A stretch of DNA of 57,308 nucleotides from Candidatus Omnitrophota bacterium (GTDB taxonomy: Bacteria; Omnitrophota; Omnitrophia; Omnitrophales; Aquincolibacteriaceae). The translations under genes were made by a program, and so were the position numbers. Below the pieces are notes generated by a model. The model was not told where the DNA came from, searched no databases, and worked only from the letters and a program-made list of their open reading frames with translations. Positions 881 to 28,784 of this stretch are shown here, piece by piece (the first letter of the stretch is position 1; each line of letters opens with the position of its first letter). The stretch spans positions 1 through 57,308 of the forward strand of contig JAZDJU010000049.1 of assembly GCA_043803685.1 (NCBI GenBank), given 5' to 3'.

Positions 881-916
881 AAATACCCCGAACAGCAAAA
901 GCTGTTCGGGGTATTT
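881..916 (-). terminator. Intrinsic terminator after tRNA-Glu
   Basis: Perfect 16-bp inverted repeat AAATACCCCGAACAGC-aaaa-GCTGTTCGGGGTATTT abutting the CCA end, followed by a T-rich tract on the minus strand. Confidence 0.75.
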
Positions 917-993
917 GGCGTCCCCAAGGGGATTTGAACCCCTGTTACCAGGATGAAAACCTGGTGTCCTAGGCCAACCTAGACGATGGGGAC
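916..993 (-). tRNA. tRNA-Glu(TTC)
   Basis: Cloverleaf: acceptor GTCCCCA/TGGGGAC, anticodon arm CCAGG-TTTTCAT-CCTGG, T arm AGGGG-TTCAAAT-CCCCT, encoded CCA. Confidence 0.97.
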
Positions 994-1128: not shown

Positions 1129-4100
1129 TCAAGCGGCTGTCTGGATCCGGAGATAGCCTTGAATGGCGTTCATCACGACTGCCAGCAAGGTGGCATACTG
1201 AGAAGGCCGGTAAGTGTTTGCCGCATTCAAGTGTGCGTCCGATGCGACTTCCAACAAGGCTGTCGCGATCCCTGCGATCAACGCTTCCATGCGATTTCCA
1301 TCCTCAGTGACCCAATAGCTTTTGACATTTCTGCGCCGGGCCAAAAGCTTCTCGTCTCGAGCCATAAAAGCATCCGCTTCTTTTTCGCCCTCGAAGGATT
1401 TAAAGCGGTCGCTCCCGATCGCTGAAACGATCCGAAGCTGCCCTGGAGCCAACACGATCCCCTCTTGAGCCATGAGCTGATCAAATTGTTTCTGGATCGT
1501 TCGTAGAGTTTCGCCTTCGGCTTCCACATTGATCGAAAGACTGGCGTGCAAAGTCACCAGTAAACCAAGGACCATTGGAAAATGCCGGACAAATTCGTCC
1601 CAGGATTTATTGTCCAAACCCGCCAGGTTCACATGAAGTTGAGGCCCCATCGCGGCATCCCGGGAGGCAAGCGTCCTCACATCTCCGGGAATAGAAGCCA
1701 TGAAGATCTCGAGAAATTGACTGAGCCGCGCACCCGTGATCTGCCCTTCCTTTTCGGAGGCGCTCATGGCCTCGATCAATTGCATCGCGATCCAAAGTCG
1801 CGCTTTACCCGCATCTTGCGTCAATAAGACGATGCTTCGGTCGGAGTAGAGACCTCCCAGAATTTGCGCGGCAAATTCGATCGAAGGAATGTCCGTTTCC
1901 GGGACCAACGTCTTCACCTGATCGAAAACACCCAATTTCAGATCTTGCATCAAGGATTCTTGGATCTCCGCCGTCGACCCGCGAAGCTCCGAACGTTGGG
2001 ATGATCCTAGTGATCCCTTAAACGGCAATGTCCCCTGATAAAGCCTAAGTCCCTTCGCGGCTTGCGTCATAAAAGACAACCCTTCGGCGAAAAGAAAGAT
2101 CTGACGACGACGCGCTACGCCGATCCGGTCCTTCGATATCTGAGACGGAGGATAGAGATCCACGAGTTCCTCTGTCGGAAGACGCTTGAATTTGTGCCAA
2201 CCGTTCAAGATGCTAAGGACGTATTCGGGACTTTTCGTTTTATCGATTGAAGTCTGCCAGGGCTCAAGAGACCACTCCAGAACCGTCTCAGGGAATGTCT
2301 TTACCAGTTCCAAGAAATTTATTTGATAGCCGGGCGTCGTTTCAATAAAGCGCAGCATCCCTACGAGCCAGGCATCCGCCTCTTTTCGAATGTACTTCTT
2401 AAGAGCATCGTTACTGACTTCGCCTTTAGCGCGGAACGCGGTGGGGTTGTAGTAACCCATGGTCCATTTCTCCAGGATATTGCGCAAAGGCGTTAAGGTT
2501 TTTTCGTCTGCACGAAAACCTTTGTAGTGTTGCTTTTCAAAATCCGCGAAGATGCCGTCCACGGTCGTCTTCAGTTCTTGAATGCGCTTCGGATTCACGG
2601 ATTGATCTTTCAATAGGATCTCCTGGATCCCCTTCCATAGTCTGAAAAGATCCTGAAGCGCCCGAAACAAAGGCCTCGACTTCCAAATACCGGACATTTT
2701 TGTCCTGACTGCCGATACATTCATCCTCCCTAACTGATCAAAGAATTTCCCATCTTGTTTAATGAGCTTGGCCTGCAACGCGTCGAAAACGTGCGCCTGT
2801 TTCTCGTCCGGGCTCCGGATTTCCGAACGATTCGCCCCATTCTTTTCTAGTAATTGCGTGAGCGCATTTTGAGTAGCTTCCAGATTGAACGGCTTGGGCA
2901 ACGCGTCAAAAATAACTCCTTCGACCTCCAAGCTTCGAAACAAAGGCCCTATCACGGGATCTTTAAGATTTTCTTCCTTAAGTGCGCTCAAAAAAAGAAC
3001 GGGCACTCTTCTTATTTTCATCGCTTCAGCAACAAATTCCGGCCCCGTCATTTCCGGCATATTGACATCGGAAATGATAAAATCGAAAAACTCTGGATTC
3101 GCACTAAAGATCTCTAGCGCCTCTCTCCCATTACGGGCAATTTGCATATTCTTAGCCTTAACTCCTAAACTCTGCTGGAGGACTGCCGGCACGAGCATAT
3201 TCATAAGCGGATCATCATCGACAAGAAGAAACCGTTTCGAAGCAAGTTCTTTCGGCCGCAGCAACTGTCGTGATGCTTCAGCGATCCCTAAGATCTGGTG
3301 TCTTGCCGGGATAGGGCTGGCATCCAACGTCTTAGTGATGAATTGTTTGATCTTGGCTATCGACACCAGATCCAATAGCCAATCTTTATGGATCGCCATA
3401 GAATTTTCCCGGTAGGTCCTTTCGAGAGAGGCATCCGGATCCATCGACAAGATCTGCAACTGAGGACGATTCAAATCCGTAGCGATCGACGAAAGACCGG
3501 CGGGCGTCACTACAAGATCAGAAGCATTGATGATATTCCGAACGATGCCCATCGAAAGATTCTCGGGCACTTTCATAATAAGATGCGCTTTTGTAGGATA
3601 CTTCTTTGCAAGCTCAGCGGTCACATAATCTACCGCGGGACGGCCCTCTTGATTCAAAGGTCCACCCTGTGAAAAAACAAGATAAGCATCGTGGTCAGCA
3701 AGGATCCAGGACAGAGCATTCAACCATACTTCCGGCGTAACCTCATGCGGAGGTTTCCTTGAAAAAGTATTTACAAAAATGATCTTCCGCCCGTCACGAA
3801 TGGCCGCATCACCAAGCCCCTTCTTCTCGAACATGCTGAAAAGGATGCCTCGCAAACGCTCTCTTTCTTGATCACTCACCTCGGCATGTCCCAGATCCAG
3901 GGTCTGCAGGTCCATGCCATCGCTTAGGAGACCCATCTCGCGATAGATCCTGAGAACGAGCTCCTCATAAACAGGTCGATTCCCTGTGCCCTTCTTGGTG
4001 AGTCGCGTAAGGTCGTCGGTCCCTTTCACGAGCCTGGCTCCTTCCCGGTCCGTCATGAGTACTGCCTTCGGTTTGACCGTCCCCGTAGAGAATGTTTCAG

Positions 4101-7100
4101 GAAGCGGGTTCATATGAGAGAAAACAACCGGCGCGGAATATTCATGAGATCCTGAGCTAGAGACCCCCTGGGTCATCTGAAAAAGCCTCCCAAGATTTTC
4201 GCCTGGTTTGGTGAAGTCGAAAACCATATCGTAATGATTAGAAACAAGCCACATAGCAAGCCCTGCAGTTTTTCCCTCCAAAGCATCCCCGATAATTCCG
4301 TCATCGATAGGAATGACCTTCAAAATGCCGTCCACAGGTTCCAGAGGCGGCAATCTATTCTTTCGATGCTCCGCATCCATCACCGGAAAAACTTTCCCGA
4401 CGAAATGGTCGGAGGAAAACTGGTTGGGATAATCGACCGCCAGATGGAGCTCCCATTCCGGAAATTTCTTCTGCAAAAGCCGCACAAAATGAGAGTAAAG
4501 CATCCACTCCCGACTCATGCTCTCTTTTCCGTACTTTTGATTCCCGAAAATGAAAACTTTCTTCACCGAATCGGCGGACATTTTTTCAAGCGGCCTTTCA
4601 ACCTCCCCCGAGTTCCTCATTTCAGAACGCTGTGTGAGATGAGGAGGCCAGAAAGTGAATTCGCCGACAGGATCTCGGAAGATCTTTTCTAGATCTTCAA
4701 GGGGGATCGGCTTCCTGAAGAAATGGACGGGTCTTTGAGCGGCAAGCTTGTTGACCACTACACGAAAAGGGCCGGCATCTTCCTCCTTCAGACTGGCCAT
4801 CATAAACACTATCGGAATATCACTGAAACGTTCCGGCATCTTCTGAACCCATTCGGTCCCCTTCATGCCTGAGATCTGAAATTCTGTCAAAATGGCGTCC
4901 GGAGTCCACGTTTCCAGATTTTTCAACGCCTCCGCCGCCGAATAAACCTGTCGCGCCTGAAAACCCACGACCTTCAGCATTCGAGCTATCACATCGGCTA
5001 CATTTGGATCATTATCGATCACCAGAATATTTTGAATCGGCTTCGCCAAAGGCTGTCTGTTCCCCTCACGGACCTCTGAACGTTGTGCTTCCAGTTCTTT
5101 AAATATCGCTACTAACATTTTCGCATCGTAAGGTTTGTCAACAAAATAGACCGTGTGCTGCGCTTCCCTTAGAACTTTCACCGCCAGATCAAATGCAGTT
5201 TGATCCTTAATGCGGCCGCTCATAAAAACAACCGGTACATGCTCAAAACCTGGCATTTTGGATGCCGTCAGGACCCATTCGGGGCCTGTCATCCCTGGCA
5301 TCTGGACGTCCGAAAGAATGAAGTCCGGAACATACGTGTTGAGTCTTCCTAAAGCCTCCTCACCGGAAGACACTGACTCCGCTTGGAAACCAGCCCTTTG
5401 AAGCTGGCGAACCGCCATATTCGCTACCATTTCTTCATCATCTACGACCAGGATTTTCTTGATCTCATTGGCCAAAGGCTGCCGGTTTTCACGAACCTCG
5501 GAACGCGCTTCGGGCCAATATTCAAAATTCAGGTGTGGCTCTGCGAGTAATGGCTTCAAAACAGATGGCGAAAAGGGCTTTCCCAATAAATGAATCGGGC
5601 GCACTTTGGCCAAGTCCTGCATCGTCTTCTGAAGTGCCTCATCTGCAATCCACCCGGTCAAAAATATAACGGGAATCTTAGCAAGCTCCGGTATTTCAGA
5701 AAATCTTTGGACCATTTCGGGTCCCATCATCCCAGGCATCGAGATGTCCGATAGCACAATGTCCGGGGTAAAATCTCTAAGCATTTCTAAGGCCCTCGGT
5801 CCCGAATCGGCGGTAACAACCTCGAATCCATGCCCGTCGTGAAGCACCCTCACTGCAAGATCTCGCGATAATTTCTCGTCATCCACCACCAGGATCTTTT
5901 GGATCGGTTTCGCCAAAGGCTTTCGAACCTCCGAACGTACCTCGGGCCAATATTTGAAATGCACTTCCGGTTCTGCGAACAATGTTTGCATGGAATTTGG
6001 AGGAAATGGTTTACCTAAAAAGTGGGTCGGATGTCGCTCGGAAAGCGCCTCGATGGCCTGATCTAATGCCACCTGATCTCCCACGTAAGCGCTCATGAAA
6101 ACAACGGGTACGCTTTCCAACCCCGGCATCTGGGCTGCTTTCAGGACCCACTCAGGACCTGTCATCCCGGGCATCAGGACATCTGTAAGAATGGCGTCCG
6201 GAGTAAATTTTTCGAGTATTTCTAGCGCTTGAGCCCCCGAATCGGCCGTCACCACTTCAAACCCAGCAGGCTTAAGTAGGCGTTTTATGGAAAACGTGAT
6301 CGATTCTTCATCATCCACAATCAGGATGTTTTTAATCCGCTTCGCCAGAGGCTCCCGATTTTCACGAACCTCCGAACGTGTTGCTGCCCCATAAGAGACC
6401 GGTGGCCGGCCAGACACAAGATTGGAAAAATCAACGCCAGCTCCGGATCCAACCTTCGCCAAAGCACGCTGAAAGGAAATAGCGCCGGTAATGGCGGGCG
6501 AAGCGATCGTTGAGTTTTTGGAAGTAAGCGTTCGGGGCATAAAACGCAAGGCCTTCCCGTCGGGGCCCGAGGATTGCACCACGACGGAAGAGGAAAGCAC
6601 CGGGTGCGCCTGGACCGCCTTCGCTACGGCCGCGGTAACGCTCGCCGGTTCCATATGATATTTCTCTGAGAGAAGCGGCGTTGCGACCTCGATCATTTCC
6701 CTGAAAAGAAGCGCTTCCTGTTTCGTAGCAAAGGGATTCTTGACCTTGAAATAAGCGGTCAGGTCCGCGTGATCCTCGGCCATCACTTTCTGATAGAGCT
6801 CCCCGCGATCGGTCCGGCTAATGTGCGGCATGAGCGTCACGTAGCCGATCTCCTGCTCTCGTAAGATCGCGTCGATACCGTCTGTGTGAAAGCCTCCGGT
6901 GATCAGGACCGTGACCCTCTTTTCTTTCCCGCTATTTCCCTTCCCTAAAGCCAGCGCGTTTTCGACAAGGATCCGGTCCCGGAGAAGCGTTGAGTCATAA
7001 AAATAATAGGCCTTGGAAAGCGCGGCTTTCAACTCGGGAGAATTTTTCACGGCAGCGGCCATCGCTTCGCTTTCACGTGCCATCCGCTCATATTCGTCGC

Positions 7101-8487
7101 GCGTCAATTCGAGGGAAAGAATTTTTTCCAGCAGATCAAAAGAATTCAGACGCGAGACCAGCTCTTTTTCGAGGTGGGTCGTCGCAAGCTTCTCGACGAG
7201 CATCCCCTCCAGAGCGTTCATCTCATCGAGAAGTCCTGCCGCCTCGACCTCCTCTTGAAGGATGAACAACTCGAAACTCCGGAGAAAGGGTTCGTGGCCT
7301 TCGAGCGAGATAGAATATTTCCTGGAAAAGAGAAACAGCTGTTCGAGGAGTTTTCGGGGATAAAGCGCCGCCTCGGTGGCGGGACGAACAGCCGCTCCGC
7401 CTTGCGAACCCGAGAGTAGACCGTTTTCATGGCCCCAGAATTCAAGGGACCGAACAAAGTCCTGTCCGGTGATGTCTTTCGCGTTTTTTTTCATCGCGGC
7501 AAGAACATTCGCCCAATCTTCCCGGGCCTTCGCGGCATTGAAACTCTTTTGGACCTCAGCCGCCAAAAGCATTTTCATGAGGTTCGGAAAACGCAATTGC
7601 TCAAGTGGATCTTTGAGATCGATCTGGAGGGTTTTGGTGGCCTGCTTTTTCAAATACTGAACATAGGCTTGAAGGTCGGGGGCTCCGCCCACCCGGTCCG
7701 GATAATACTTCCCCTCCTTACGACGTTTCCGCTCCTTCAAAAAATCGAGCAGGTCTGCGTTCAAACCCCGCGAGACTTCGGCTTCTAATAGGGCCCGAAG
7801 GGGGGTCAAACGAGTTTGAATTTCATCCCGTTTAAAAAGAAGTTCCCGGTATGTTTTTAGATTCTCGCGATAAAGATCAATGTCTTCGACGCCGCTTACC
7901 CGTACGGCGTTTTGCGTACGGCGTTCCACGTCCGCCATTTTCAGACCCACATTTTTTAGGCGCTCGCCGTAGTCCGTACTCCGTACGCTGGACGTATTCG
8001 CTTCTTGCAAAAGATAAAGCTCCGCGCCGCCCAGTTCGCCTTTTTTGAGAAGATCGTCAACGACCGCCTGGTTGGCTTCCGGAAATTTTTTGAAAAATTG
8101 CAGGTATTCCGGATGAAGGGGCCCCGCGACACCCTCGACGCCGATCGCGAGGTTGGGGTATTTCTGTGCTAAAAACTTGAGGATCCCGGCGATGTTCTTC
8201 TGAGCTTCGGGATTCGCGTGAGCATCCTGGATATGAACGACGAACTCTTGCGAAGCAGTTCCCGCGGGCGGCTCCCAGGAGGACACGAGAGAGCCGAGTT
8301 CAGCAGGAATGGCATAGAGATCTTTTCGAAGGCCATCCGACTCCTTAACTTTGCCTTCAAAGTTAAGCCTTTCAGAAGAGGCAAAGGCTTGAGGCAGACT
8401 TCCAGTGAGCGTAGTCACCGTAAAAATGATGGCCACAAGTAAAGAAATCCCCCTACACATCAACGGTCTACTAGATAAAGTTGTCAT
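1129..8487 (-). CDS. Giant 2452-aa modular protein: signal peptide, TIKI/ChaN/EreA-like domain, 4 tandem REC, GT9-like, REC, two unknown domains
   Basis: Signal peptide ending PQAFA; HIQDAH / GVEG / RD / TGGFH motifs; five receiver domains (IL[IV]VDD...D..MPGM.G...KP[FY] pattern); seven RSExR linkers. Confidence 0.9.
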   Translation of the reverse strand: MTTLSSRPLMCRGISLLVAIIFTVTTLTGSLPQAFASSERLNFEGKVKESDGLRKDLYAIPAELGSLVSSWEPPAGTASQEFVVHIQDAHANPEAQKNIAGILKFLAQKYPNLAIGVEGVAGPLHPEYLQFFKKFPEANQAVVDDLLKKGELGGAELYLLQEANTSSVRSTDYGERLKNVGLKMADVERRTQNAVRVSGVEDIDLYRENLKTYRELLFKRDEIQTRLTPLRALLEAEVSRGLNADLLDFLKERKRRKEGKYYPDRVGGAPDLQAYVQYLKKQATKTLQIDLKDPLEQLRFPNLMKMLLAAEVQKSFNAAKAREDWANVLAAMKKNAKDITGQDFVRSLEFWGHENGLLSGSQGGAAVRPATEAALYPRKLLEQLFLFSRKYSISLEGHEPFLRSFELFILQEEVEAAGLLDEMNALEGMLVEKLATTHLEKELVSRLNSFDLLEKILSLELTRDEYERMARESEAMAAAVKNSPELKAALSKAYYFYDSTLLRDRILVENALALGKGNSGKEKRVTVLITGGFHTDGIDAILREQEIGYVTLMPHISRTDRGELYQKVMAEDHADLTAYFKVKNPFATKQEALLFREMIEVATPLLSEKYHMEPASVTAAVAKAVQAHPVLSSSVVVQSSGPDGKALRFMPRTLTSKNSTIASPAITGAISFQRALAKVGSGAGVDFSNLVSGRPPVSYGAATRSEVRENREPLAKRIKNILIVDDEESITFSIKRLLKPAGFEVVTADSGAQALEILEKFTPDAILTDVLMPGMTGPEWVLKAAQMPGLESVPVVFMSAYVGDQVALDQAIEALSERHPTHFLGKPFPPNSMQTLFAEPEVHFKYWPEVRSEVRKPLAKPIQKILVVDDEKLSRDLAVRVLHDGHGFEVVTADSGPRALEMLRDFTPDIVLSDISMPGMMGPEMVQRFSEIPELAKIPVIFLTGWIADEALQKTMQDLAKVRPIHLLGKPFSPSVLKPLLAEPHLNFEYWPEARSEVRENRQPLANEIKKILVVDDEEMVANMAVRQLQRAGFQAESVSSGEEALGRLNTYVPDFILSDVQMPGMTGPEWVLTASKMPGFEHVPVVFMSGRIKDQTAFDLAVKVLREAQHTVYFVDKPYDAKMLVAIFKELEAQRSEVREGNRQPLAKPIQNILVIDNDPNVADVIARMLKVVGFQARQVYSAAEALKNLETWTPDAILTEFQISGMKGTEWVQKMPERFSDIPIVFMMASLKEEDAGPFRVVVNKLAAQRPVHFFRKPIPLEDLEKIFRDPVGEFTFWPPHLTQRSEMRNSGEVERPLEKMSADSVKKVFIFGNQKYGKESMSREWMLYSHFVRLLQKKFPEWELHLAVDYPNQFSSDHFVGKVFPVMDAEHRKNRLPPLEPVDGILKVIPIDDGIIGDALEGKTAGLAMWLVSNHYDMVFDFTKPGENLGRLFQMTQGVSSSGSHEYSAPVVFSHMNPLPETFSTGTVKPKAVLMTDREGARLVKGTDDLTRLTKKGTGNRPVYEELVLRIYREMGLLSDGMDLQTLDLGHAEVSDQERERLRGILFSMFEKKGLGDAAIRDGRKIIFVNTFSRKPPHEVTPEVWLNALSWILADHDAYLVFSQGGPLNQEGRPAVDYVTAELAKKYPTKAHLIMKVPENLSMGIVRNIINASDLVVTPAGLSSIATDLNRPQLQILSMDPDASLERTYRENSMAIHKDWLLDLVSIAKIKQFITKTLDASPIPARHQILGIAEASRQLLRPKELASKRFLLVDDDPLMNMLVPAVLQQSLGVKAKNMQIARNGREALEIFSANPEFFDFIISDVNMPEMTGPEFVAEAMKIRRVPVLFLSALKEENLKDPVIGPLFRSLEVEGVIFDALPKPFNLEATQNALTQLLEKNGANRSEIRSPDEKQAHVFDALQAKLIKQDGKFFDQLGRMNVSAVRTKMSGIWKSRPLFRALQDLFRLWKGIQEILLKDQSVNPKRIQELKTTVDGIFADFEKQHYKGFRADEKTLTPLRNILEKWTMGYYNPTAFRAKGEVSNDALKKYIRKEADAWLVGMLRFIETTPGYQINFLELVKTFPETVLEWSLEPWQTSIDKTKSPEYVLSILNGWHKFKRLPTEELVDLYPPSQISKDRIGVARRRQIFLFAEGLSFMTQAAKGLRLYQGTLPFKGSLGSSQRSELRGSTAEIQESLMQDLKLGVFDQVKTLVPETDIPSIEFAAQILGGLYSDRSIVLLTQDAGKARLWIAMQLIEAMSASEKEGQITGARLSQFLEIFMASIPGDVRTLASRDAAMGPQLHVNLAGLDNKSWDEFVRHFPMVLGLLVTLHASLSINVEAEGETLRTIQKQFDQLMAQEGIVLAPGQLRIVSAIGSDRFKSFEGEKEADAFMARDEKLLARRRNVKSYWVTEDGNRMEALIAGIATALLEVASDAHLNAANTYRPSQYATLLAVVMNAIQGYLRIQTAA

Positions 8488-8582: not shown

Positions 8583-8612
8583 AGTATACACACCAATCCA
8601 AGGATTTGTCAA
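8583..8612 (-). promoter_or_regulatory. sigma70 promoter of the giant gene
   Basis: TTGACA (8612-8607), 18-nt spacer, TATACT (8588-8583), about 95 nt upstream of the ATG. Confidence 0.6.
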
Positions 8613-11414: not shown

Positions 11415-12194
11415 TTATTCTTTATGCTCCGCCTCGTTCATCATATCCCGCAGTGTCAGAACGATGCTCATGGGTTCATGGGCGGGATTCTCAATGATCT
11501 CAAGAGACATCTCCGCACGCTGGATCACCGACTGATGGGGATCCTTCTTCTCGATCCGGAACGTTTTCGGAGCCATCACACAATCACTTAACATGCTCCG
11601 CGGAATGGAAACAGCATAGCGTTGGAAAATAAACTCCAGAAAATTAGCGTTGATGAACCCCTCCCCCGGCGTGAGATAGCGCACAGCGGCCGGATTGAGA
11701 TTCGTCACGATCCATTCGGGATTGCACACGATCATGGGCTGACTCATCTCGAAAACAAGCCGCAACAACCTTTCATTCTCCCCCAAAGCCTCCTCACTGG
11801 CACTGATCCTCAGAAGGGACCGGACCCGGACGATCAGTTCGACCATGCTAAAAGGTTTGGTGATAAAATCATCACATCCCGCCTCGATCCCCCGGAGCTT
11901 GTCCTCCTCGGCGTTCATGCCCGTCAACAGGACCACGGGAATTGCGCGCGTGCGCTCATCCGAACGCAACCGCCGCAGCACCTCCAGACCCGACGTGCCA
12001 GGCATCATAACATCCAACAGAATAAGATCCGGAATTTCTTTTGAGAGTTGCTTCAGCGCGTCTTCTCCGGATTCTGAGAAAAGGAGCTTGTACCCTTGCG
12101 GCGAAAGATAGATCTCAAGGATCTTAAGCATTTGCCTATCATCGTCCACGCACAATAGGGTCTGCTTCATTGGAACCTTCATAGTCCTCCTCAA
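11415..12194 (-). CDS. Response regulator (REC + PAS-like domain)
   Basis: LLCVDDD...LILLDVMMPG...LLTG...DFITKPF, then a PAS-like segment (PMIVCN..W.VTNLNPAA). Confidence 0.85.
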   Translation of the reverse strand: MRRTMKVPMKQTLLCVDDDRQMLKILEIYLSPQGYKLLFSESGEDALKQLSKEIPDLILLDVMMPGTSGLEVLRRLRSDERTRAIPVVLLTGMNAEEDKLRGIEAGCDDFITKPFSMVELIVRVRSLLRISASEEALGENERLLRLVFEMSQPMIVCNPEWIVTNLNPAAVRYLTPGEGFINANFLEFIFQRYAVSIPRSMLSDCVMAPKTFRIEKKDPHQSVIQRAEMSLEIIENPAHEPMSIVLTLRDMMNEAEHKE

Positions 12195-12562
12195 ACGGCT
12201 TCGATAAACCGGCGGATCTCTTCAGCGAAAGTCCGCGTATCGATCGGCTTGGGTAAAAACAACTTTCCATTAAAAGCCCTGATCTCTTCCATCATCTCGC
12301 CACTCACGCTGGCCGTTACAAAAATCACCGGAATGCCCCGAGTCTCGGGCGCTTCCTGCAAAGCCTTGGCGAGTTGAGTCCCTCGCATATCCGGAAGCCG
12401 CACGTCCGCCACGATCGCATCCGGCCTTTCTTTTCGCGCAAGAACGAGTCCGCTTGCGCCATCCCTAGCCTCGAGAACCTCCATGCCCGCCACATCCAGG
12501 AGATCCTTCTCCAGCATCCTGTTTTTTTCGTCATCCTCAATGATCAAGACTCGTTTTTTCAT
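12191..12562 (-). CDS. Single-domain response regulator (DivK/CheY-like)
   Basis: MKKRVLIIEDD...IVADVRLPDMRG...FVTAS...LPKPID; ATG overlaps the kinase stop codon (ATGA). Confidence 0.9.
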   Translation of the reverse strand: MKKRVLIIEDDEKNRMLEKDLLDVAGMEVLEARDGASGLVLARKERPDAIVADVRLPDMRGTQLAKALQEAPETRGIPVIFVTASVSGEMMEEIRAFNGKLFLPKPIDTRTFAEEIRRFIEAV

Positions 12563-15500
12563 TTCAAGATCCCTCCTGTTGGGATGGTGAACTTCACGCT
12601 CGTCCCCTTCCCGACCCCCTCCGACTCGATCCATATCTTGCCGCCGTGAAGCTCGATTATTTTTCGGGAAATCGTCAGTCCGAGCCCGGTTCCTTCCGTC
12701 TCTTGCGTACAAAGATCTCCAAGGCGTTGAAAAGCGATGAACACCCTTTCAAAATTTTCAGGCGAGATGCCAACCCCCGAATCCCACACGACCCCTTCGA
12801 CCCCGGCCCCTACCTTCTGGATCCGGATCCCGACCTTCCCTCCGTCCGGGGTGAATTTGATCGCATTAGACAACAGGTTGTAAATGACCTGCTTGATCTT
12901 GCGCTGATCCGCATAGATCTCTCCAAGATCTCCGGAGACCTCCATCACAGGTTTGATCCGCTTCGCGCGGGCCTGATTCTCCATCATCCGAAAAACCTCT
13001 TCGATGGTGCTTTTAAGCGAAAAGGAGGACGCCTCCATCACCATTTTCCCGGACTCCACCTTCGACAGGTCCAGGACATCATTGATAAGGGATAGCAAAT
13101 GCTGTCCGCTGAGGAGGACATTTTGGGCGTATTTTTTCTGTCGCTCGTTGAGCGGACCGAATCGTTCGTCAAAGAGGACTTCTGAAAACCCGATGATGGA
13201 GTTCAGAGGTGTCCGGAACTCATGCGACACATTCGCCAAAAATTCATTCTTCGCCCGGCTGGCCCGTTTCAGCTCTTCATCCGTCGACTGCAGCTTCTGA
13301 AAACTACGCACAAGCTCCTCGGTCCTTTCCTTCACCTGTTGCTCAAGATTATCATGAGATCTTTTCAGGGCCTCTGCCAACCGCTTGTTCTCGGTGATGT
13401 CACGCCATAGACAATGAAGGATGTTCCGGCCATGGATCACAAGAGACGTCAGCGAAACTTCCACCGCGAATAATTCCCCGTCGGCTTTTTTGTAGACCCA
13501 TTCGAACCGGTGGTACCCTTGATCCAAAGCGATCTTCATCATCTCATTCGCCTTCTCAAAGGAATCTCTTACGTCAGGCTGTTCCGGGGGGGACAACTCC
13601 GAAGGATGACGCTTCAAAAACTCTTCCCGTGTGGCATACCCGAGCATCTGAACTGTAGCCTCATTGCAATCCACAAATTTGTCACCGTCGATCAAAAGAA
13701 TGGCATCCTGGGAGGTATGCAAAACATCCATAAACCGTTTCTCGCTCTCCTGCAAAGCCTCCTCTGTTCTCTTGCGCTCCGAAATATCGCGCATACTTCC
13801 GAGCAGCATCATCTCCCCGTTGATCTTTACGGGATAAGTCCGGATCTCCACTGCAACAGAGGAACCATCTTTCCTGTCGAGCTCATACTCCGTCGGGCCC
13901 GTGGAATGTCCCAAAGCGTTTTGGGCAATGGCCGCAGCCATTGGGGGCACATCCGACGAAGACAATATTCCTGATCTCAAAAAATCCTTTCCGATCAGTT
14001 CTTCGATCTTATATCCGCTTAATTCCTCCGTCACTCTGTTGCCATCGACAAAAACACCGTTAAGATCACAAAGATAGAGCCCGTCCGGCGCATAGGCAAA
14101 AAGGACCTTGAGCTTTTCTTCAGAATCCCGCAGTCTCTCCTCGGCTCTCTTGCGATCAGAGATGTCGATCCCCACACCCACCAAGAGAGGAACGTTATCA
14201 AGGATGACACGATGTCCCGTAAAGTAAAAGAACGTCTTCTTGCCGTTTTTGCTTACTAATTCGGCTTCGAGAACAGCTTCCCCCTTCGCAAAAACCTTTT
14301 CAAGCCCCTCTTTCACTCTATTTTTCTCATGATCAGAAAAAAGATTCAGCGGGTGCATCCCCATCAGTTCTTCCTGCGAATACCCCGACACTTTGACGAG
14401 ATTATCATTGACCCGAAGAAATTTCCCTTTATTGTCAAAAAGATAGAATATTCCGGGGAGACTCTCAATGAGCAATTCGGAGAGGTGCCTGGCCTTCAAG
14501 CTCTCCGCTTCCATCCGTTTGAGCCCAGAAATATCACGAGCAAAACTACAGATCTTCAAAAGCTCGCCGGAATCGGCAAAGTAAAGGTTGACGTTCCAAA
14601 GCATCTCGAAAACCCGGCCCTCCTTGCTGACTTGACGGTTCTGGAAAGTGGCCTGCTTTTCTTTACCGCGCACCCACCCCTCAAAAATCGCCTTGGTCCT
14701 TTCCTGGTCATCCACATGAATAAAATCAAACGCTGAACGACCGATACAATCTTCGGGCTTGATGCCAAAGATCTTTTCCGCGCTGTGGTTCACGTAGGTG
14801 AGACGACCCCGCCGGTCCACGATCGTGATCAGATCTTCGGTCCCCTCCACCAACTCACGATAGCGTTCATCGGCCTTGCGAAACGCCTTCTCCGCCTCAT
14901 CTCTTCCGGCGATCTCTTTTTCCAAAGGAATGTAAACCGCCACGCCAAAAATAACACCCACGATCACAAGCGCTATAAAAAAATAGATCAGCGTTCGTAT
15001 GCCAAACTGCGTGATCTCGCGCGGCATCGAGACCTTAAGCATCAAAACGTCTTTTCCGGTGATGTTTTTCAGAAGGCTGTATCCAGCGACCGTCTTACCA
15101 TCTAGATCACTGAGAAAGGTCCGGCTTCCCTTGAGAAATGCCGTGCGCGCAACTGTAAAATCGGGCGGTGTGGAGATGCCCGCAATTTTTTCCGCGCTCA
15201 ATTCCACGCGCACGATCTGGCTAAAACGCCTCATCTCATCCGCGTCCAGGCGCGCCCCAAAGATCACCGTCCCACGGATCGGCCCCATGCCATTGCTTTT
15301 TACGATCGGCCTTGAAACTAACATCAAAGGCCCATCGGAAAGCATCACGATCCCCGCCACAGAACTATTCTCATTCTGATGCGCCAGTAAAGTGCCCAGA
15401 GCATCTTTAAACTCTGCTCGAAGCAACTGCCCCGCTGCCTCATCACTTTCTCGATGATGGTTGAATACCAATTCGCCTCGCGCGTTGAAGAACAGCATCA

Positions 15501-15819
15501 TGTCAATTTGGAGGGTCTCAAGGGTAAGGGGGGTCAGGTTCGACGTGATGTAGGCCTCATTTTTATCCTCAATAAAAGCATACGTATCATCCCAGATGGT
15601 CCAGTCCCCGATCTTGACGGCGAGGTTATTCAGCGTGTCAGCGACAACTTCCTGAGATCGGAAAATGTTCCTCTGAACCGACAATTTCTCGAGTTTGGAA
15701 AATCCCCCCATCACCGCGATCCACGAAACGATAAATATCGCGGCCAGAAGGATGGTCAAACCGAGAGCGATCGTGCGAAACGTTCTCTTATGGATCTTAA
15801 TTGTCTTTATTGGCGCCAT
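12559..15819 (-). CDS. CHASE4 - 4xPAS - HisKA - HATPase sensor kinase
   Basis: Two TM helices around CHASE4 (DWTIWDDTYAFI), four PAS/PAC (RDIS/RDIT ends), H box ANVSHEFRTPL, N/G boxes NLLSNAIKFT, GTGLGL. Start placed at MAPIKT. Confidence 0.92.
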   Translation of the reverse strand: MAPIKTIKIHKRTFRTIALGLTILLAAIFIVSWIAVMGGFSKLEKLSVQRNIFRSQEVVADTLNNLAVKIGDWTIWDDTYAFIEDKNEAYITSNLTPLTLETLQIDMMLFFNARGELVFNHHRESDEAAGQLLRAEFKDALGTLLAHQNENSSVAGIVMLSDGPLMLVSRPIVKSNGMGPIRGTVIFGARLDADEMRRFSQIVRVELSAEKIAGISTPPDFTVARTAFLKGSRTFLSDLDGKTVAGYSLLKNITGKDVLMLKVSMPREITQFGIRTLIYFFIALVIVGVIFGVAVYIPLEKEIAGRDEAEKAFRKADERYRELVEGTEDLITIVDRRGRLTYVNHSAEKIFGIKPEDCIGRSAFDFIHVDDQERTKAIFEGWVRGKEKQATFQNRQVSKEGRVFEMLWNVNLYFADSGELLKICSFARDISGLKRMEAESLKARHLSELLIESLPGIFYLFDNKGKFLRVNDNLVKVSGYSQEELMGMHPLNLFSDHEKNRVKEGLEKVFAKGEAVLEAELVSKNGKKTFFYFTGHRVILDNVPLLVGVGIDISDRKRAEERLRDSEEKLKVLFAYAPDGLYLCDLNGVFVDGNRVTEELSGYKIEELIGKDFLRSGILSSSDVPPMAAAIAQNALGHSTGPTEYELDRKDGSSVAVEIRTYPVKINGEMMLLGSMRDISERKRTEEALQESEKRFMDVLHTSQDAILLIDGDKFVDCNEATVQMLGYATREEFLKRHPSELSPPEQPDVRDSFEKANEMMKIALDQGYHRFEWVYKKADGELFAVEVSLTSLVIHGRNILHCLWRDITENKRLAEALKRSHDNLEQQVKERTEELVRSFQKLQSTDEELKRASRAKNEFLANVSHEFRTPLNSIIGFSEVLFDERFGPLNERQKKYAQNVLLSGQHLLSLINDVLDLSKVESGKMVMEASSFSLKSTIEEVFRMMENQARAKRIKPVMEVSGDLGEIYADQRKIKQVIYNLLSNAIKFTPDGGKVGIRIQKVGAGVEGVVWDSGVGISPENFERVFIAFQRLGDLCTQETEGTGLGLTISRKIIELHGGKIWIESEGVGKGTSVKFTIPTGGILK

Positions 15820-15926
15820 AAAGTCTCTGTGGATACAGCGCTGCCCGACGCAGAGGATTGAGTGCGGAGAATCTCTTGGGTGTATATTTCTTCCATATTT
15901 TCCCCAATTTAAAATTTCCAACAGAA

Positions 15927-17833: not shown

Positions 17834-19663
17834 CTAAATTTCGACCTGGCAGGTGATGTAAAAAGTCGAGGCACCGGCCCCGGAAGTGGGATCGTCCCCC
17901 AAGGCTTTGGCCCACTGGGCGCGCACATAGAGGTTCTTCCGGAAATGAAGTTGCACGCCGCCCCCCGAGCCCATAAGGAACTTGTGCTCTCGTTCCCCCT
18001 GGAGGGTTTTGTTAAGCTTTCCCATCCCGACATCCAGAAAAACGAAGGGCTCGATCTGGCTTCGCAGAGGCACATCCGCCTTGGGAAGTTTCCAACGCTC
18101 AGGGATAAAATACGCTGGGAACATCCAGTCGGTGCTGATATTGCCACCAATATCCGCCATATAATCGCCTTCGGGATAACCTCGAACTGTATTGATCCCC
18201 CCGAGCTGACACTGTTCCGATGACGGAAGTGTATAAGGACTTACCTGAAAAACGGACCGGATGGCCATGTAGCTTTTCAGGAACATCCGCTGCATACGGC
18301 GAAGATTCTGCGTGTAATTAAAAAAGAACCCTCCCGTGCCGTCGCGGCTGGCGCTCGGATGATTGCGTGTCGAGGCTCCCAGAAAACGCGATGTCCCGAA
18401 AGTGAATTGGGGCGAAAAGGTGGTTTCTCCTCCGCCTCCGAAAAGATCCGTTTTGTTAAGATCAAAGCCAAAGTACGGCAAGCGAAGCTGGTCGTTCGTC
18501 GTGATCGCTCCGGCGATCTTCTTTTTGATGACCTTGATCTCCATCCCAGCAGAAGCATTCGCCTGAAAACTTTCGGAAAGATACAATTCCTTGGAGATGT
18601 GGGGACTGTAGATCTGCGTCGTCCCCGTCACATGAAAGGACCGGAGCTCCTTGCCGAGTGTCATCGTAAAATAGGTCATATCCATGCCGATCATGGTGCC
18701 ACGCGTATCCAACGGCAGGTCGTAACTCGAAGACACCCCGACGGTATCAGCACTGAGGATATTGCTCGCAAAAAATGAATCAAAATGTCCCGTGAGATTG
18801 CTGCTGCGCAAATAGAACGAAGTCCGGTTCTTCCCCGTCAGACGTGTCCCCTGATTGTCAAATCCTGCCCCGATGTGATAAGGAACGTTCTCCTTGGCAC
18901 GCAGGACGATATCGCTTGTCCCCGTCACCTCGCCCGCCTGAATGAACGTCTTGATCTCAAGATCAGGGTTCTGGTTAAGCCTCAGAATATCTTTCTGAAG
19001 CCTGGGCATATTCAAAGGCTCCTCTTTTTTGATATGGAGAAATTTCTCGATCAGAGCGCGCGAGAACCAACGGTTCCCCTCGACAGTCACCTTACCCAGA
19101 CGGCCTTCGACCACTTTGACCTCAACCTTCCCCCCCTTGATATCCTGCTCGGGGACAAAGACGGTCGTGGTCAGATACCCTTTCCGGACATAGCGGTCTT
19201 CGATTTTCTTGGTGATCTCATCCAGATCTTGAAAAGAGATTTTTTTGTCGAGATAGGCTTGATAGGTCGGCCGGAGATCCTGAGGCTTGAACACCGTGCT
19301 TCCTGTAACGCTGATCTCTTTCAGGAGAAAGGTCGCGGCGGAGGGCGCTGCCGCTCCCTTGGGCTTTTCCACTTCGATTTCAGGAGCTTTGACCTTCTTC
19401 TTCCCGAGAAGTTCCTTCCTTTGCTCGAACTGCTGATAAACGCGCTCGCCCTGCGCCCCCGGTTCCTGCCCGGGAGGAATATTCGCGGCAAAAGCCGGCG
19501 TTGTGATCCCGATCATTGCTATAAGAAAAAACAGCCTTCTCGATGCGTGTGTCAACTCTATGGATCCTTGTCTCATCGTATGGGGTATGCAGCTTTTAAA
19601 TCGCCGCCTGAATTGATTTTCGTCGACGGCTTCACGCATTCTGTAACGGCAAAACCGCACCAA
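17834..19663 (-). CDS. ShlB/FhaC/HecB (TpsB) two-partner secretion transporter
   Basis: POTRA motifs (I.V.GSTVF, Y..KGY.TT.V.VPEQDI..G.V...VVEG) and the TpsB motif LGGINTVRGY. Start uncertain; signal peptide ends near PAFA. Confidence 0.9.
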   Translation of the reverse strand: MVRFCRYRMREAVDENQFRRRFKSCIPHTMRQGSIELTHASRRLFFLIAMIGITTPAFAANIPPGQEPGAQGERVYQQFEQRKELLGKKKVKAPEIEVEKPKGAAAPSAATFLLKEISVTGSTVFKPQDLRPTYQAYLDKKISFQDLDEITKKIEDRYVRKGYLTTTVFVPEQDIKGGKVEVKVVEGRLGKVTVEGNRWFSRALIEKFLHIKKEEPLNMPRLQKDILRLNQNPDLEIKTFIQAGEVTGTSDIVLRAKENVPYHIGAGFDNQGTRLTGKNRTSFYLRSSNLTGHFDSFFASNILSADTVGVSSSYDLPLDTRGTMIGMDMTYFTMTLGKELRSFHVTGTTQIYSPHISKELYLSESFQANASAGMEIKVIKKKIAGAITTNDQLRLPYFGFDLNKTDLFGGGGETTFSPQFTFGTSRFLGASTRNHPSASRDGTGGFFFNYTQNLRRMQRMFLKSYMAIRSVFQVSPYTLPSSEQCQLGGINTVRGYPEGDYMADIGGNISTDWMFPAYFIPERWKLPKADVPLRSQIEPFVFLDVGMGKLNKTLQGEREHKFLMGSGGGVQLHFRKNLYVRAQWAKALGDDPTSGAGASTFYITCQVEI

Positions 19664-26225: not shown

Positions 26226-27740
26226 TTAATAGATCCGGGTTGCTTCCGTTTCCTGAACTGGACGGCTGATCGCATCGCTCGTCATAATGAGAGTCGTGCG
26301 GTGATCGCCTTCCTTGACCGCTTTCGCAGTCACTTCCCAAGTAGCTTTCTGGCCTGCCCCAAGGCTGGCAAGCGGTGCGAACTCCACCGTCTTGACATCC
26401 GTGGACTTGCCCTGGGTCGGACCTTCAGACGCCACATAGTCAAGATTCTCTTCAAAAGTCATCTTGACGACGATGTCGTTATCCGGGGCCGATCCCTGGT
26501 TGGTCACGGTCACATAGAGCTTCTCCGTGCCACCGACCTGGATCGGATCTTCCGTGTCAATGACTTCCAACAGGATGGCCGGAATACCCTGAACATCGCT
26601 TGCCGCTTGTGCAGAAGCTTCCTGGCAACAAGTCCCCGTGGCTCTGGCAACGCTCTCGCCCGAACCCCCCGTTACGGCCTTAAAGGTCGCATCGAGAGAA
26701 ACCTGCTTCCCTGCCTGCAAGGTGCCGATGTTCCACATGACTTTTCCGCCATCTTGCCGTCCGCCATCGCTGGCCTGGACGAACTTCATTCCGGAAGGAA
26801 TCGTCGTGCTGACAACCGTATTCTCAGAAGCGGCATCGCCAACGTTCTGGACGCCTACCTTGTAATCGGCATTCTTGGTTACGAAGATCTTGCTCGGTCC
26901 ATCAACACTCACCTTGAGCGAGGGCTGCATCACTTCCGTCTTAACCGAGGAAGAAGAAGCAGAGAGCCCGCCTGCCGCAGAAGCGCTGGCCGTATTGGAA
27001 TAGCTGCCAACATTCTGGGCTTTCAAATTCACGTTGTAGGCTTTCGACGCGCCGCCCGCGAGATCCCCAACGTTGATCGAGACAGAGTTCCTGCCATCGG
27101 TCGTCAAAAGACCTTCCGGCAATGTCTGTGTAATGACCGCGCCTTTGGCATAACCCGTGCCACTGTTCGTGACCGTCAACTTGACCGGGATCACATCGCA
27201 GATCAAAGCCTGGCTGGGCGCTTCAAGAACAACCTTCAGGCTAGGTGAGATCGCTTCAGACGCGAGACAAAGCAGCGGGTTATAAGTAGCCTTGGTGCAA
27301 GTCGTGGTCGCGTTAGCATCCATCGCGGCCCCGGTGATCGTGATGATCTTGGTTTCATTAGGCTTCAAATAACCGAGATCCCATTGCGCCACATTGCCAG
27401 TCTGCTTGGAAGCTTCAGGAACCGCTGTTTTAATCTCGTATTTTTCAGAAACTCTTTCGATCACGGTCACATCATCCAAACCACATTTGGAATCATTGGA
27501 AACCTTGATCGTGTAGGAATAAGGCTGCCCGATCAGGACCTGGCCCGGGATTTCCTTATCGATGTGGAGCGGACTGCTGGACTTTTCGCAATCATCACAT
27601 CCCATCGATCCGCGGATCATACCGGCAACCGGTTTGGATTCACTCTCACCGCAACAAGTCGCGCAACCGGACAACACAAAAGCGGTTCCGACAACAAGCA
27701 ACAGAGCGAGAACGCTCATTAGCTTTTTGGATTGGAACAT
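26226..27740 (-). CDS. OmcB-like cysteine-rich DUF11-repeat lipoprotein
   Basis: Lipobox LSGC, Cys clusters (CATCC, CDDC, TCC), four Ig-like repeats (Y.I.V.N, V.N.G), C-terminal ILLEVIDTEDPIQVG...VTNQGSA resembling chlamydial OmcB. Confidence 0.75.
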   Translation of the reverse strand: MFQSKKLMSVLALLLVVGTAFVLSGCATCCGESESKPVAGMIRGSMGCDDCEKSSSPLHIDKEIPGQVLIGQPYSYTIKVSNDSKCGLDDVTVIERVSEKYEIKTAVPEASKQTGNVAQWDLGYLKPNETKIITITGAAMDANATTTCTKATYNPLLCLASEAISPSLKVVLEAPSQALICDVIPVKLTVTNSGTGYAKGAVITQTLPEGLLTTDGRNSVSINVGDLAGGASKAYNVNLKAQNVGSYSNTASASAAGGLSASSSSVKTEVMQPSLKVSVDGPSKIFVTKNADYKVGVQNVGDAASENTVVSTTIPSGMKFVQASDGGRQDGGKVMWNIGTLQAGKQVSLDATFKAVTGGSGESVARATGTCCQEASAQAASDVQGIPAILLEVIDTEDPIQVGGTEKLYVTVTNQGSAPDNDIVVKMTFEENLDYVASEGPTQGKSTDVKTVEFAPLASLGAGQKATWEVTAKAVKEGDHRTTLIMTSDAISRPVQETEATRIY

Positions 27741-27881
27741 CTTGACCTCCTGTTATGTTTGTTGAAATGAAATCGAAAGAAAGGATCCAGATCACCCTGT
27801 GATTTCCAGGACGGCATTGTATCATTCCAAAAAAAACTCGCCACTTCTTTTTATCTCCAGATCGCAACTCCAGAAACAACG

Positions 27882-27912
27882 AAGGCGCCATGGAGGTTCT
27901 CCATGGCGCCTT
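27882..27912 (-). terminator. Terminator hairpin
   Basis: Perfect 14-bp inverted repeat AAGGCGCCATGGAG-gtt-CTCCATGGCGCCTT. Confidence 0.7.
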
Positions 27913-27934
27913 GGTTCCTTCGTGTTCCGATCTA

Positions 27935-28729
27935 TTAGTAGATCCGAGTAGCTTCCGTTTCGTCAACTGAACGCTGGATCGCATCACTCGTCAACTTCAC
28001 AGACGTGCGATGATCGCCTTCCTTCACGGCCTTAGCCGACACTTCCCAAGTGGCTTTCTTGCCTGCCGCAAGAGTGGCCAACGGCGCAAACTCCACCGAC
28101 TTGACATTGGTGGATCTCCCTTGAGTCGGTCCCGCAGACGCCACATAGTCGAGATTTTCTTCGAAATCCACTTTCACGACAATGTTCGAATCATCAGCAT
28201 TGCCCTGGTTCGTCACCGTCACATAGAATTTCTCCATCCCATCGACCTGGATCGGATCTTCCGTATCGATCACTTCAAGAAGGATCGCCGGCATTCCCAA
28301 CTGAGGCCCCTGGCACAGGGTCTGACTGTGGAACACCTTGGTACACGATTCGAACGAACCCACAGCCTTCGCGGTCCCGCTGATCTTGATCGTCTTGGTT
28401 TCTTTCGCTTTCAACGTGCCAAGATCCCACTGAACGGTCTGTCCGGTCACTTTGGAAGCTTCCGGAGTCGCGGTGCCCAGGCTATACGTCGCGGGCAACG
28501 TTTCGATGATCGAAACGTCTTCCACCGGGCCATTCGACCCATTGCTAACACGGATCGTGTACGTGTAGATCTTCCCGATCAGGATCTGCGGCGGCATATC
28601 CTTCTGAATGCAAAGAGGCGATGTTTGGCCATTACAACCCGCCGAAACTGCCGGGACAAAAGCAACACTGATCGTGATAACAAAAGCGAGAAAAACCATA
28701 GCCATTTTTGAGAACTTCGTTTGAGTCAT
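27935..28729 (-). CDS. Short OmcB-like paralog (two DUF11-like domains)
   Basis: Start MTQTKFSK after AAGGAG; C-terminal domain nearly identical to that of 26226..27740. Confidence 0.8.
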   Translation of the reverse strand: MTQTKFSKMAMVFLAFVITISVAFVPAVSAGCNGQTSPLCIQKDMPPQILIGKIYTYTIRVSNGSNGPVEDVSIIETLPATYSLGTATPEASKVTGQTVQWDLGTLKAKETKTIKISGTAKAVGSFESCTKVFHSQTLCQGPQLGMPAILLEVIDTEDPIQVDGMEKFYVTVTNQGNADDSNIVVKVDFEENLDYVASAGPTQGRSTNVKSVEFAPLATLAAGKKATWEVSAKAVKEGDHRTSVKLTSDAIQRSVDETEATRIY

Positions 28730-28784
28730 TGTCTTCTCCTTTTCGTTGGTTCGATAAGCGACGCGCTCACGCGTCGGGTCTATC

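Follow-up and report, generated by a model that had tools for sequence, protein, structure and literature searches.

What does a pentapeptide do that recurs between otherwise unrelated modules of a single, very large bacterial protein? The question is raised by a gene in a 57,308-nucleotide stretch of DNA (contig JAZDJU010000049.1 of assembly GCA_043803685.1, hereafter the window) from a Candidatus Omnitrophota bacterium. The gene, which lies on the reverse strand and opens with ATG, comprises 2,452 codons by the open reading frame (ORF) list and its translation, and the original prediction, made from the sequence alone, held that its product is exported and cut at seven copies of RSExR to release effectors into a host or prey cell. 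We find that the protein belongs to a family-wide cassette architecture in which module borders carry a strict, lineage-specific pentapeptide under protein-level selection; here a short hydrophilic linker at each border holds R-[S>A]-E-[L/V/M/A]-R. That these proteins are modular polyproteins, or pro-proteins, cut at the motif, with the N-terminal unit as candidate protease, is a reading to which we give about an even chance.

A recount of the pattern placed all seven copies at the amino acid (aa) and DNA positions first assigned to them (Table 1). They divide the chain into an N-terminal unit (N-unit) of 703 aa, four receiver units (REC1-4) with spacings of 147, 144, 141 and 151 aa, and units of 600, 278 and 288 aa, in agreement with the unit sizes first proposed. 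Composition alone predicts 0.04 copies, and at most two appeared in 5000 shuffles. The tripeptide RSE is confined to the seven motifs, allowing K for R, D for E or T for S in the pattern yields no extra sites in the protein, and the other 43 long ORFs of the window (14,206 aa) contain no RSExR. By alignment, REC1-4 are paralogous repeat units of 42-52% identity that share RSEVR and a conserved 'ENRxPLAKxI' linker; their RSEVR copies have one origin, and four of the seven motifs are therefore not independent. The motifs at aa 1287, 1887 and 2165 stand in unrelated contexts, which leaves about three or four independent contexts in this protein.

To see the motif beyond one protein, we searched for homologs with aa 40-700 as query, which returned 142 proteins of 1.3-4.3 thousand amino acids (kaa), 58 of 4.3-5.0 kaa and 17 shorter ones, mostly contig-end fragments. 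Among 119 homologs with unrelated cargo, RSExR occurs 253 times against 7.3 expected, a 35-fold enrichment, with at least one copy in 60 proteins and at least three in 42; 194 homologs together hold 443 copies. The pentapeptide is strict. Its second position is S in 254 copies and A in 57 (RAExR, 6.5 expected), Ser to Ala being the only change tolerated, and Lys for Arg or Asp for Glu stays at or near background. The variable position is L in 28%, V in 23%, M in 20% and A in 12% of copies. In the 119 homologs the flanks are unconserved, with slight richness in Pro/Ser/Ala upstream and Thr/Ser/Glu/Asp downstream.

Such a string might be a functionless by-product of chance, low complexity, a tandem-duplication scar or an element acting at the DNA level. 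That four of the seven window copies sit in paralogous REC units fits this account, as does a codon preference: the first motif Arg is CGT in all seven window copies, against 17% among the remaining 130 Arg codons, and across 97 motifs in related loci it is CGY in 72% (background 45%) while Ser is TCN in 93% (background 68%). The account is nevertheless contradicted by the enrichment in homologs, by the rest of the codon use and by the avoidance of Pfam envelopes described below. The seven Ser codons run TCG, TCG, TCC, TCA, TCT, TCG, TCG, bearing out the variation noted originally. In the 97 related motifs all Arg codons are used and Glu codon usage equals background; since synonymous sites vary and Glu codons follow background, the constraint acts on the peptide. 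We rejected a DNA-level element, given the variable codons, the lack of a detectable DNA tandem repeat in the gene (TRF gives a 7-nucleotide microrepeat only), a motif DNA pattern no commoner across the whole window than in shuffles, and the absence of any Rfam family within the gene. We regard a by-product as very improbable, and the proposed protein-level selection is upheld by the varied codons and by the enrichment in homologs. The preference at the motif Ser codon may reflect Ser/Ala toggling via TCN/GCN.

The motifs mark module borders and not domain interiors. In 19 homologs, none of 168 R[SA]ExR motifs falls inside a Pfam best-stretch envelope, where random placement would put 15.6 (P ~5e-8). 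In P0021, for example, three UDP-glucose dehydrogenase domains are bracketed by motifs at 1154 and 1935, and in P0052 the PALP, RmlD and His_Phos_1 domains occupy one motif interval each. Modules homologous to the window protein's GT-like (glycosyltransferase-like), unknown and C-terminal units behave alike: 23 module-to-module alignments contain no motif, and the motifs lie a few residues from the alignment ends (P0008 module 3032-3488, motifs at 3024 and 3493; P0006 module 1441-1704, motifs at 1435 and 1712). Sixty proteins have at least three motifs; their 357 spacings have a median of 296 aa, the first motif follows the GGFH of the N-unit by a median of 188 aa, the last precedes the C-terminus by a median of 289 aa (interquartile range 273-311), and only a single motif is located within an N-unit. 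Residues up to ten positions to either side of 503 motifs are hydrophobic at a fraction of 0.26, down from 0.33, and twin motifs 10-50 residues apart flank low-complexity spacers. Homologs with wholly different cargo keep the N-terminal unit and carry the motif at their cargo borders, as the original prediction would have it. By their placement, the motifs form conserved junction sites between independently folding units, as in a polyprotein.

Under the polyprotein reading, a chain would consist of a Sec-type signal, an N-unit of about 650 aa, variable self-contained cargo modules and a C-terminal unit (C-unit) of about 285 aa with a conserved tail. As cargo, the window protein would carry four receivers as single domains, a fifth one fused to a GT-like domain, and a module of unknown family. 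A dedicated endopeptidase would recognize the motif and there cut the chain into modules, a strategy that would deliver them in fixed proportions. What leads us to an endopeptidase site is the strictness of the motif, its position at borders, the redundancy of twin sites, the interchange of Ser and Ala and the replacement of the motif by other pentapeptides elsewhere in the family.

The same borders could also belong to a chain that stays uncut, like beads on a string, with RSExR serving as a linker short linear motif for a binding partner, a chaperone or export factor, or a modifying enzyme. A sharply defined pentapeptide between unconserved flanks is what short linear motifs look like, the largest subfamily does without a sharp motif, and published work treats large Omnitrophota proteins, in the text available, as single membrane-associated polypeptides (10.64898/2026.06.07.730766). 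Three observations speak against it. Ala takes the place of Ser in 57 of 311 copies and throughout whole proteins (P0046 has 10 RAEVR), so modification of the Ser is not essential; twin motifs around low-complexity spacers fit redundant cutting sites better than docking; and unrelated pentapeptides occupy the same border position in other lineages. We consider an uncut chain unlikely.

Unbiased pattern counts revealed those other pentapeptides in some relatives that lack RSExR. GARLA occurs 15 times in P0186 and 8 times in P0080, RAEVR occurs 10 times in P0046, AARLA is found in P0199, RAEKR in P0055 and RSDxR in P0053, and [AGS][AS]SLG recurs in P0164, P0045 and P0107. None of 45 alternative motifs lies within a Pfam envelope (6.1 expected); the AA_kinase domain of P0164 (739-1046) stands between motifs at 729 and 1077, and the HD domain of P0080 (2692-2860) between motifs at 2654 and 2883. 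Motif classes group together on a FastTree tree of 181 N-units, which needs 31 changes where shuffles need 60.5; support for its deep branches is weak, and such clustering by itself cannot tell co-evolution from shared ancestry. The RSE class takes up 58 of the 93 rows in one half of the tree; in the other half, 78 of 88 rows are motif-less, 8 are ARLA and 2 are RSE. Lineage-specific junction peptides are the pattern expected from co-evolving protease/site pairs.

The largest subfamily has no sharp motif at all (none in 145 of its 146 top-scoring representatives), and a clade-level search for junction motifs in the motif-less clade gave only a single-copy AHELxH signature and Ala/Pro-rich linkers. 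This zincin-like signature is present in 24 of 83 long cargo regions (26 occurrences; for example in P0203-P0345 and L037-L080), and HExxH appears in 16 of 32 in another sample. Going by these signatures, the subfamily without junction motifs could carry an embedded metallopeptidase.

The N-unit is the constant part of a very large family. A profile built from 71 N-units matches 10,098 representative proteins at E<=1e-3 and 7,260 at E<=1e-30 (50% identity clusters), and in the 150 representatives listed the match begins within the first 90 residues. The N-unit stays below the cutoff of every Pfam and NCBIfam model, and so do minimal members of about 900-1,270 aa. At 2.45 kaa the window protein is shorter than some of its relatives, which measure 4.3-7.7 kaa. 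Nearly all named homolog sources are Candidatus Omnitrophota or Omnitrophica, apart from a few unclassified 'bacterium' entries, one Endomicrobium, one Elusimicrobia and one 'Candidatus Auribacter'. The Atlas lacks the window sequence and, for the homolog P0136, gives Omnitrophota clusters only. A scan of species-representative genomes gave 264 encoding stretches, and our locus analyses use the best 80 of these 264, some of which share a genome. About 57 of the 80 are titled Omnitrophota or Omnitrophica and the others are metagenome-assembled genomes labelled 'uncultured bacterium' or 'uncultured Planctomycetia'; the family has several paralogs per genome. Four loci (L001, L006, L020, L030) contain masked stretches, visible as X runs in the translated ORFs, and in L010 (3569-14044) an N-unit ORF is followed on the same strand by an adjacent ORF with the C-unit, a split family gene. 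Such masked stretches and split genes are probably assembly errors or frameshifts and not real splits.

The Sec-type signal peptide assigned to the window protein is supported by a hydropathy heuristic: aa 8-30 form its sole strongly hydrophobic stretch and are followed by AFA-SS. By the same heuristic, a hydrophobic N-terminal stretch is present in 139 of 150 annotated complete N-termini of the family, with a mean net charge of +2.7 before and -0.7 after it; AxA-like sequences come next. The public gene call for the window protein (P0005, 2,435 aa) starts 17 codons after the ATG at 8487 and loses 8436-8487, most of the signal peptide; the longer N-terminus is conserved in close homologs.

Could the N-unit itself be the protease? 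In its roughly 650 aa, 13 columns are invariant among 84 sequences (Q87, D88, A89, H90, E118, G199, E201, E422, R503, G531, G532, H534, P554). The arrangement D88-x-H90...E118...G-G-x-H534 resembles the His/Glu active site of the Tiki/TraB/ChaN/erythromycin-esterase hydrolases. These have a 2His/2Glu site (E3900, H3902, E3930 and H4030 in RRSP; H85/E113 in Bcr135), and several members of the Tiki superfamily are described as sequence-specific endopeptidases (PMC6254334). In the N-unit an invariant acidic-x-His is likewise followed by a Glu 28 residues on and by a distal G-x-x-His, and the H90-E118 spacing of 28 equals that of H85-E113 in Bcr135 and H3902-E3930 in RRSP (PMC6254334). It differs in an insertion of about 400 residues between the Glu and the distal His, in an Asp that replaces the first Glu, and in profile matches that all fall below curated cutoffs. 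The window N-unit matches PF04187 (ChaN, Tiki superfamily, haem-binding uptake) at E 4.6e-4 with 20.7 bits (cutoff 27.7) over the RD...TGGFH region; among the 71 N-units, four match PF04187, one PF18950 and one PF01963 (TraB_PrgY_gumN), all below cutoff. These weak matches lie on the GG-x-H region. Sequence and profile searches of the PDB with the N-unit gave no match. From these residues and spacings, the N-unit is a candidate Tiki/ChaN/TraB-like hydrolase, and the proposal that it is the protease is made more weakly than that of a cleavage site.

Neighbouring genes suggest no other enzyme. Across the 80 loci no neighbour is conserved beyond housekeeping synteny, and neither a protease nor a secretion system recurs; we rejected a conserved neighbouring gene, as the best non-family cluster, a PAS histidine kinase, is found at only 9 of the 80 loci. 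With no conserved neighbouring protease, and as the sole conserved, enzyme-like and always-present part within the motif clade, the N-unit is the leading protease candidate.

The cargo of the relatives is highly varied and of cytoplasmic type. Its Pfam families include phosphotransferase system (PTS) EI and HPr, UDP-glucose dehydrogenase, UTP-glucose-1-phosphate uridylyltransferase, phosphoglucomutase (PGM) and phosphofructokinase (PFK); glutamine synthetase, glutamate dehydrogenase, transketolase, starch synthase, GT1, methyltransferases and kinases; and NUDIX, HD, FHA, sigma-70 regions and SecA domains. No peptidase Pfam family appears in the cargo lists of motif-bearing homologs. The mixture looks more like the organism's own cytoplasmic proteome than like a toxin set.

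In the whole window protein Pfam finds five receiver domains (PF00072 in five stretches, E 1.5e-83) and nothing further at E<=1e-3; at E<=1 there are only Response_reg and two chance-level matches. The residues DD, D, S/T and K are kept in REC1, 2, 3 and 5, whereas by alignment REC4 has DN instead of DD and Glu at the phospho-acceptor position. Over aa 1-1303 the window protein is colinear with its closest homolog, P0006, at 62% identity, and relative to P0006 it has the GT-like domain inserted directly after the motif at 1287. This domain is homologous to modules of P0144, P0008, P0142, P0009 and P0015. The 'GT9-like' label first given to it gains weak support through these modules, PF01075 scoring 24.5 bits (cutoff 22) over 34 residues of the P0142 module and E 0.005 on that of P0009; the window protein itself has no PF01075 match, and its GT-like part finds no Pfam match even at E<=10 and no PDB match by profile. 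The next unit, aa 1892-2164, has no match in Pfam, NCBIfam or PDB, and its homologous modules in P0006 and P0145 are motif-bracketed. NCBIfam matches none of the non-REC units, and a PDB search with aa 1292-2452 returned receivers only.

A constant C-terminal unit, as originally proposed, exists by homology within a close subclade, where an iterated hidden Markov model recovered counterparts of aa 2170-2452 in 23 sequences, ending no more than eight residues from the C-terminus. Family-wide only a short tail signature is shared. We rejected a universal C-terminal domain, since hhalign gave a probability of 0.13% for the close-clade C-unit against C-termini of the motif-less clade, and we rejected the C-unit as the protease, since 42 C-units of the RSE clade have no invariant catalytic-type residues. 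An AlphaFold2 model of the C-unit from a five-sequence alignment is unreliable (mean pLDDT 48, pTM 0.36). The family-wide tail comprises about 25 residues ending in [AS][ALV] and is present in 263 of 341 stored proteins; among complete ORFs, 31 of 37 from the family have this ending compared with 21 of 478 controls. The tail is possibly a tag for a tail-specific protease, a secretion signal or a means of docking onto the N-unit.

Several findings weigh against a polyprotein cut by its own N-unit. The N-unit and its invariant residues are equally conserved in the largest, motif-less subfamily, so that its function is not strictly tied to RSExR. The motif-bearing P0092, L078 and L038 have N-units in the mostly motif-less half of the tree; motif type may go with the genome and not with the N-unit. 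Scores for the Tiki assignment stay below threshold, with any match in only 6 of 71 N-units and empty PDB profile searches. The minimal members P0129 and L014, which consist of an N-unit and a C-unit, have no motif. Finally, four of the five window receivers keep the phospho-acceptor and relatives carry sigma factors, SecA and PTS proteins; cargo of this kind needs the cytoplasm, and Sec export of the entire chain fits poorly with that. The paradox of an export signal on cytoplasmic-type cargo, pointed out at the start, is real.

On a rival reading, the motif would be a cleavage site for a separate, trans-acting protease (for example a tail-specific S41 protease reading the non-polar C-tail, a subtilisin or an Arg-specific protease), and the N-unit would do other work, such as ChaN-like cofactor binding or anchoring. 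Motif type is uniform among the paralogs of a genome (RSE in L018 and L034; SLG in the adjacent large ORF of L029 and in L035), of the 60 RSE-type rows in the N-unit tree just 2 belong to the other half, and the N-unit is conserved where the motif is absent. The [AS][ALV] ending, frequent in the family and rare in the controls, fits as well; tail-specific proteases read non-polar C-terminal tails. In one variant, co-translational cutting in the cytoplasm would export the N-unit only and leave the cargo behind, which would explain its cytoplasmic type. Against a trans-acting protease stand the 80 loci, which have no conserved adjacent protease gene, and on balance we hold it to be rather unlikely.

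The original prediction went further and likened the protein to MARTX (multifunctional autoprocessing repeats-in-toxin) toxins, as an exported carrier that is cleaved at RSExR so that effectors are set free into a host or prey cell. In its favour, the Sec-type signal occurs family-wide, conserved end units surround variable cargo in a MARTX-like layout (PMC6254334), and Omnitrophota have been proposed to be predators or parasites (PMC10066038). MARTX toxins, too, are very large, with conserved N- and C-terminal regions flanking variable, unrelated enzymatic modules that an in-cis protease releases (PMC6254334), and their effector RRSP is itself a Tiki-superfamily endopeptidase. Here the resemblance stops at layout. 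MARTX toxins depend on type 1 secretion and possess repeat regions and an inositol-hexakisphosphate-activated cysteine protease domain, whereas here there are a Sec-type signal (by the heuristic), no RTX or C80 Pfam match in the window protein and another candidate protease, together with a strict pentapeptide site, housekeeping-like cargo and about 10,000 representatives in one phylum. RTX-type terminal repeats were found neither by Pfam on the whole window protein at E<=1 nor by TRF, no peptidase family appeared in its Pfam or NCBIfam scans, and our scan of the window showed no type 1 secretion genes. The cargo itself (sigma-70, SecA, HPr/EI, PGM, PFK, glutamine synthetase, receivers) is housekeeping-like, Pfam shows no pore-forming or RTX repeats and no C80 protease domain, and at the 80 loci no delivery device is linked to the genes, which lie among core genes (ABC-F, tsf, frr, pyrH, fab genes) and not in islands. 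MARTX-like delivery is the least supported part of the earlier interpretation, and we deem it improbable.

Processing at the motif, which we continue to prefer, invites comparison with three other systems. Polyvalent proteins of phages and conjugative elements combine 2-15 unrelated enzymatic domains with predicted release by an embedded peptidase, and Iyer et al. 2017 liken them to viral polyproteins (PMC5512222). Polyvalent proteins, however, reside on mobile elements, carry conflict-related domains and mostly zincin-like peptidases, and have no junction motif reported in the available text (PMC5512222), whereas the window family is chromosomal among core genes and has a constant N-unit with a signal peptide and discrete junction pentapeptides. 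Viral polyproteins share short conserved junction sites between functional units, varying among lineages; the window family differs in being cellular and chromosomal, in its several paralogs per genome, in its export signal and in having a candidate protease unlike those of viruses. The third system is the 'multi-enzyme metabolic cluster' giants of the same phylum, whose cargo is of like kind (PGM, starch synthase, GT1, receivers, methyltransferases and kinases), most Omnitrophota giants carrying a signal peptide or transmembrane segments (10.64898/2026.06.07.730766; 10.1101/2023.11.21.568195). They differ in size and content, being at least 10 kaa with many Pfam families, while the window protein has 2,452 aa and one Pfam family in five copies.

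Cleavage of these giants is a stated open question, and missing cleavage points blocked their structure-based analysis (10.1101/2023.11.21.568195). The other account describes their predicted topology, and the words cleav-, motif, linker, proteoly- and polyprotein are absent from its available text (10.64898/2026.06.07.730766). Our literature searches turned up neither the motif nor the N-terminal family. As a strict pentapeptide bracketing every recognizable enzyme over hundreds of modules, the motif supplies concrete candidate cut sites and, equally, a simple rule for dividing proteins of this family in silico. Our interest in the locus is high because it offers candidate cut sites for that question and opens a very large family for which no Pfam or NCBIfam model reaches its cutoff. 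As judged from sequence comparison, a polyprotein is the best, still unproven explanation, and the window protein is a candidate processed multi-module protein. If processing is real, it would be a widespread bacterial polyprotein mode for housekeeping-type enzymes, and the lineage-specific motifs would form a natural set of orthogonal protease/site pairs.

A bolder extension, which we think doubtful, is that polyproteins, either exported or targeted to the membrane, supply part of the Omnitrophota's own cytoplasmic-type proteome, with a Tiki-like N-terminal protease cutting at lineage-specific pentapeptides (RSExR, GARLA, xxSLG). If true, that proteome would span sugar-nucleotide and glycolytic enzymes, PTS proteins, receivers and even sigma factors and SecA-like modules. 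It would be a cellular counterpart of viral polyprotein expression, and the motif could be used to dissect the phylum's giant proteins into functional units.

Table 1. Features of the giant gene and its surroundings in window coordinates, with one tail example from a related locus
Feature	Position	Strand	Basis or remark
Whole gene, 2,452-aa modular protein	1129..8487	-	ORF list, translation; stop codon 1129-1131
Sigma-70-like promoter match TTGACA-18-TATACT	8583..8612	-	11/12 consensus positions; ~95 nt upstream of ATG; consensus match only
Sec-type signal peptide, aa 1-36 (R7, R12; hydrophobic core; AFA-SS)	8379..8487	-	hydropathy heuristic
Conserved N-terminal unit, aa 37-703, candidate Tiki/ChaN/TraB-like hydrolase	6379..8378	-	alignments, sub-threshold PF04187
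RSEVR, aa 704-708, N-unit/REC1 junction	6364..6378	-	pattern match
REC1, aa 709-850	5938..6363	-	PF00072; NCBIfam best stretch 719-816; alignment
RSEVR, aa 851-855	5923..5937	-	pattern match
REC2, aa 856-994	5506..5922	-	Pfam best stretch 865-977
RSEVR, aa 995-999	5491..5505	-	pattern match
REC3, aa 1000-1135	5083..5490	-	NCBIfam best stretches 1010-1132
RSEVR, aa 1136-1140	5068..5082	-	pattern match
REC4, aa 1141-1286, degenerate receiver	4630..5067	-	alignment reading
RSEMR, aa 1287-1291	4615..4629	-	pattern match
GT-like domain (~1292-1745) fused to REC5 (~1752-1882), aa 1292-1886, motif-free join	2830..4614	-	homologous modules
RSEIR, aa 1887-1891	2815..2829	-	pattern match
Module of unknown family, aa 1892-2164	1996..2814	-	no Pfam, NCBIfam, PDB match
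RSELR, aa 2165-2169	1981..1995	-	pattern match
C-terminal unit, aa 2170-2452, ending ...YLRIQTAA	1132..1980	-	iterated HMM (hidden Markov model), 23 sequences
Conserved tail, window example	1132-1206	-	
Conserved tail, example from a related locus	L080:20549-20623		

The window is ordinary chromosome, with rpsB, tsf, pyrH, frr, suf genes and fumarase. Upstream of the giant gene come an ABC-F gene and, at a distance of 3-7 kilobases (11415-15921, reverse strand), the genes for a 1,120-aa multi-PAS histidine kinase and two receiver proteins; the kinase may be a phosphodonor for the receiver modules. Secretion and surface genes are also present on the reverse strand (17834-19663, 28785-29780, 26226-28873 and 56519-57307), among them a ShlB/FhaC-type two-partner-secretion transporter without an obvious adjacent TpsA, an autotransporter beta-domain protein, two DUF11 surface-repeat proteins and an NlpC/P60 hydrolase. 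A tRNA-Glu(ttc) gene (916-993, reverse strand) immediately follows the giant gene, and an ORF on the forward strand that overlaps this tRNA (600-956) is probably spurious. A further tRNA, Lys(ttt), is encoded at 33372-33444 on the reverse strand.

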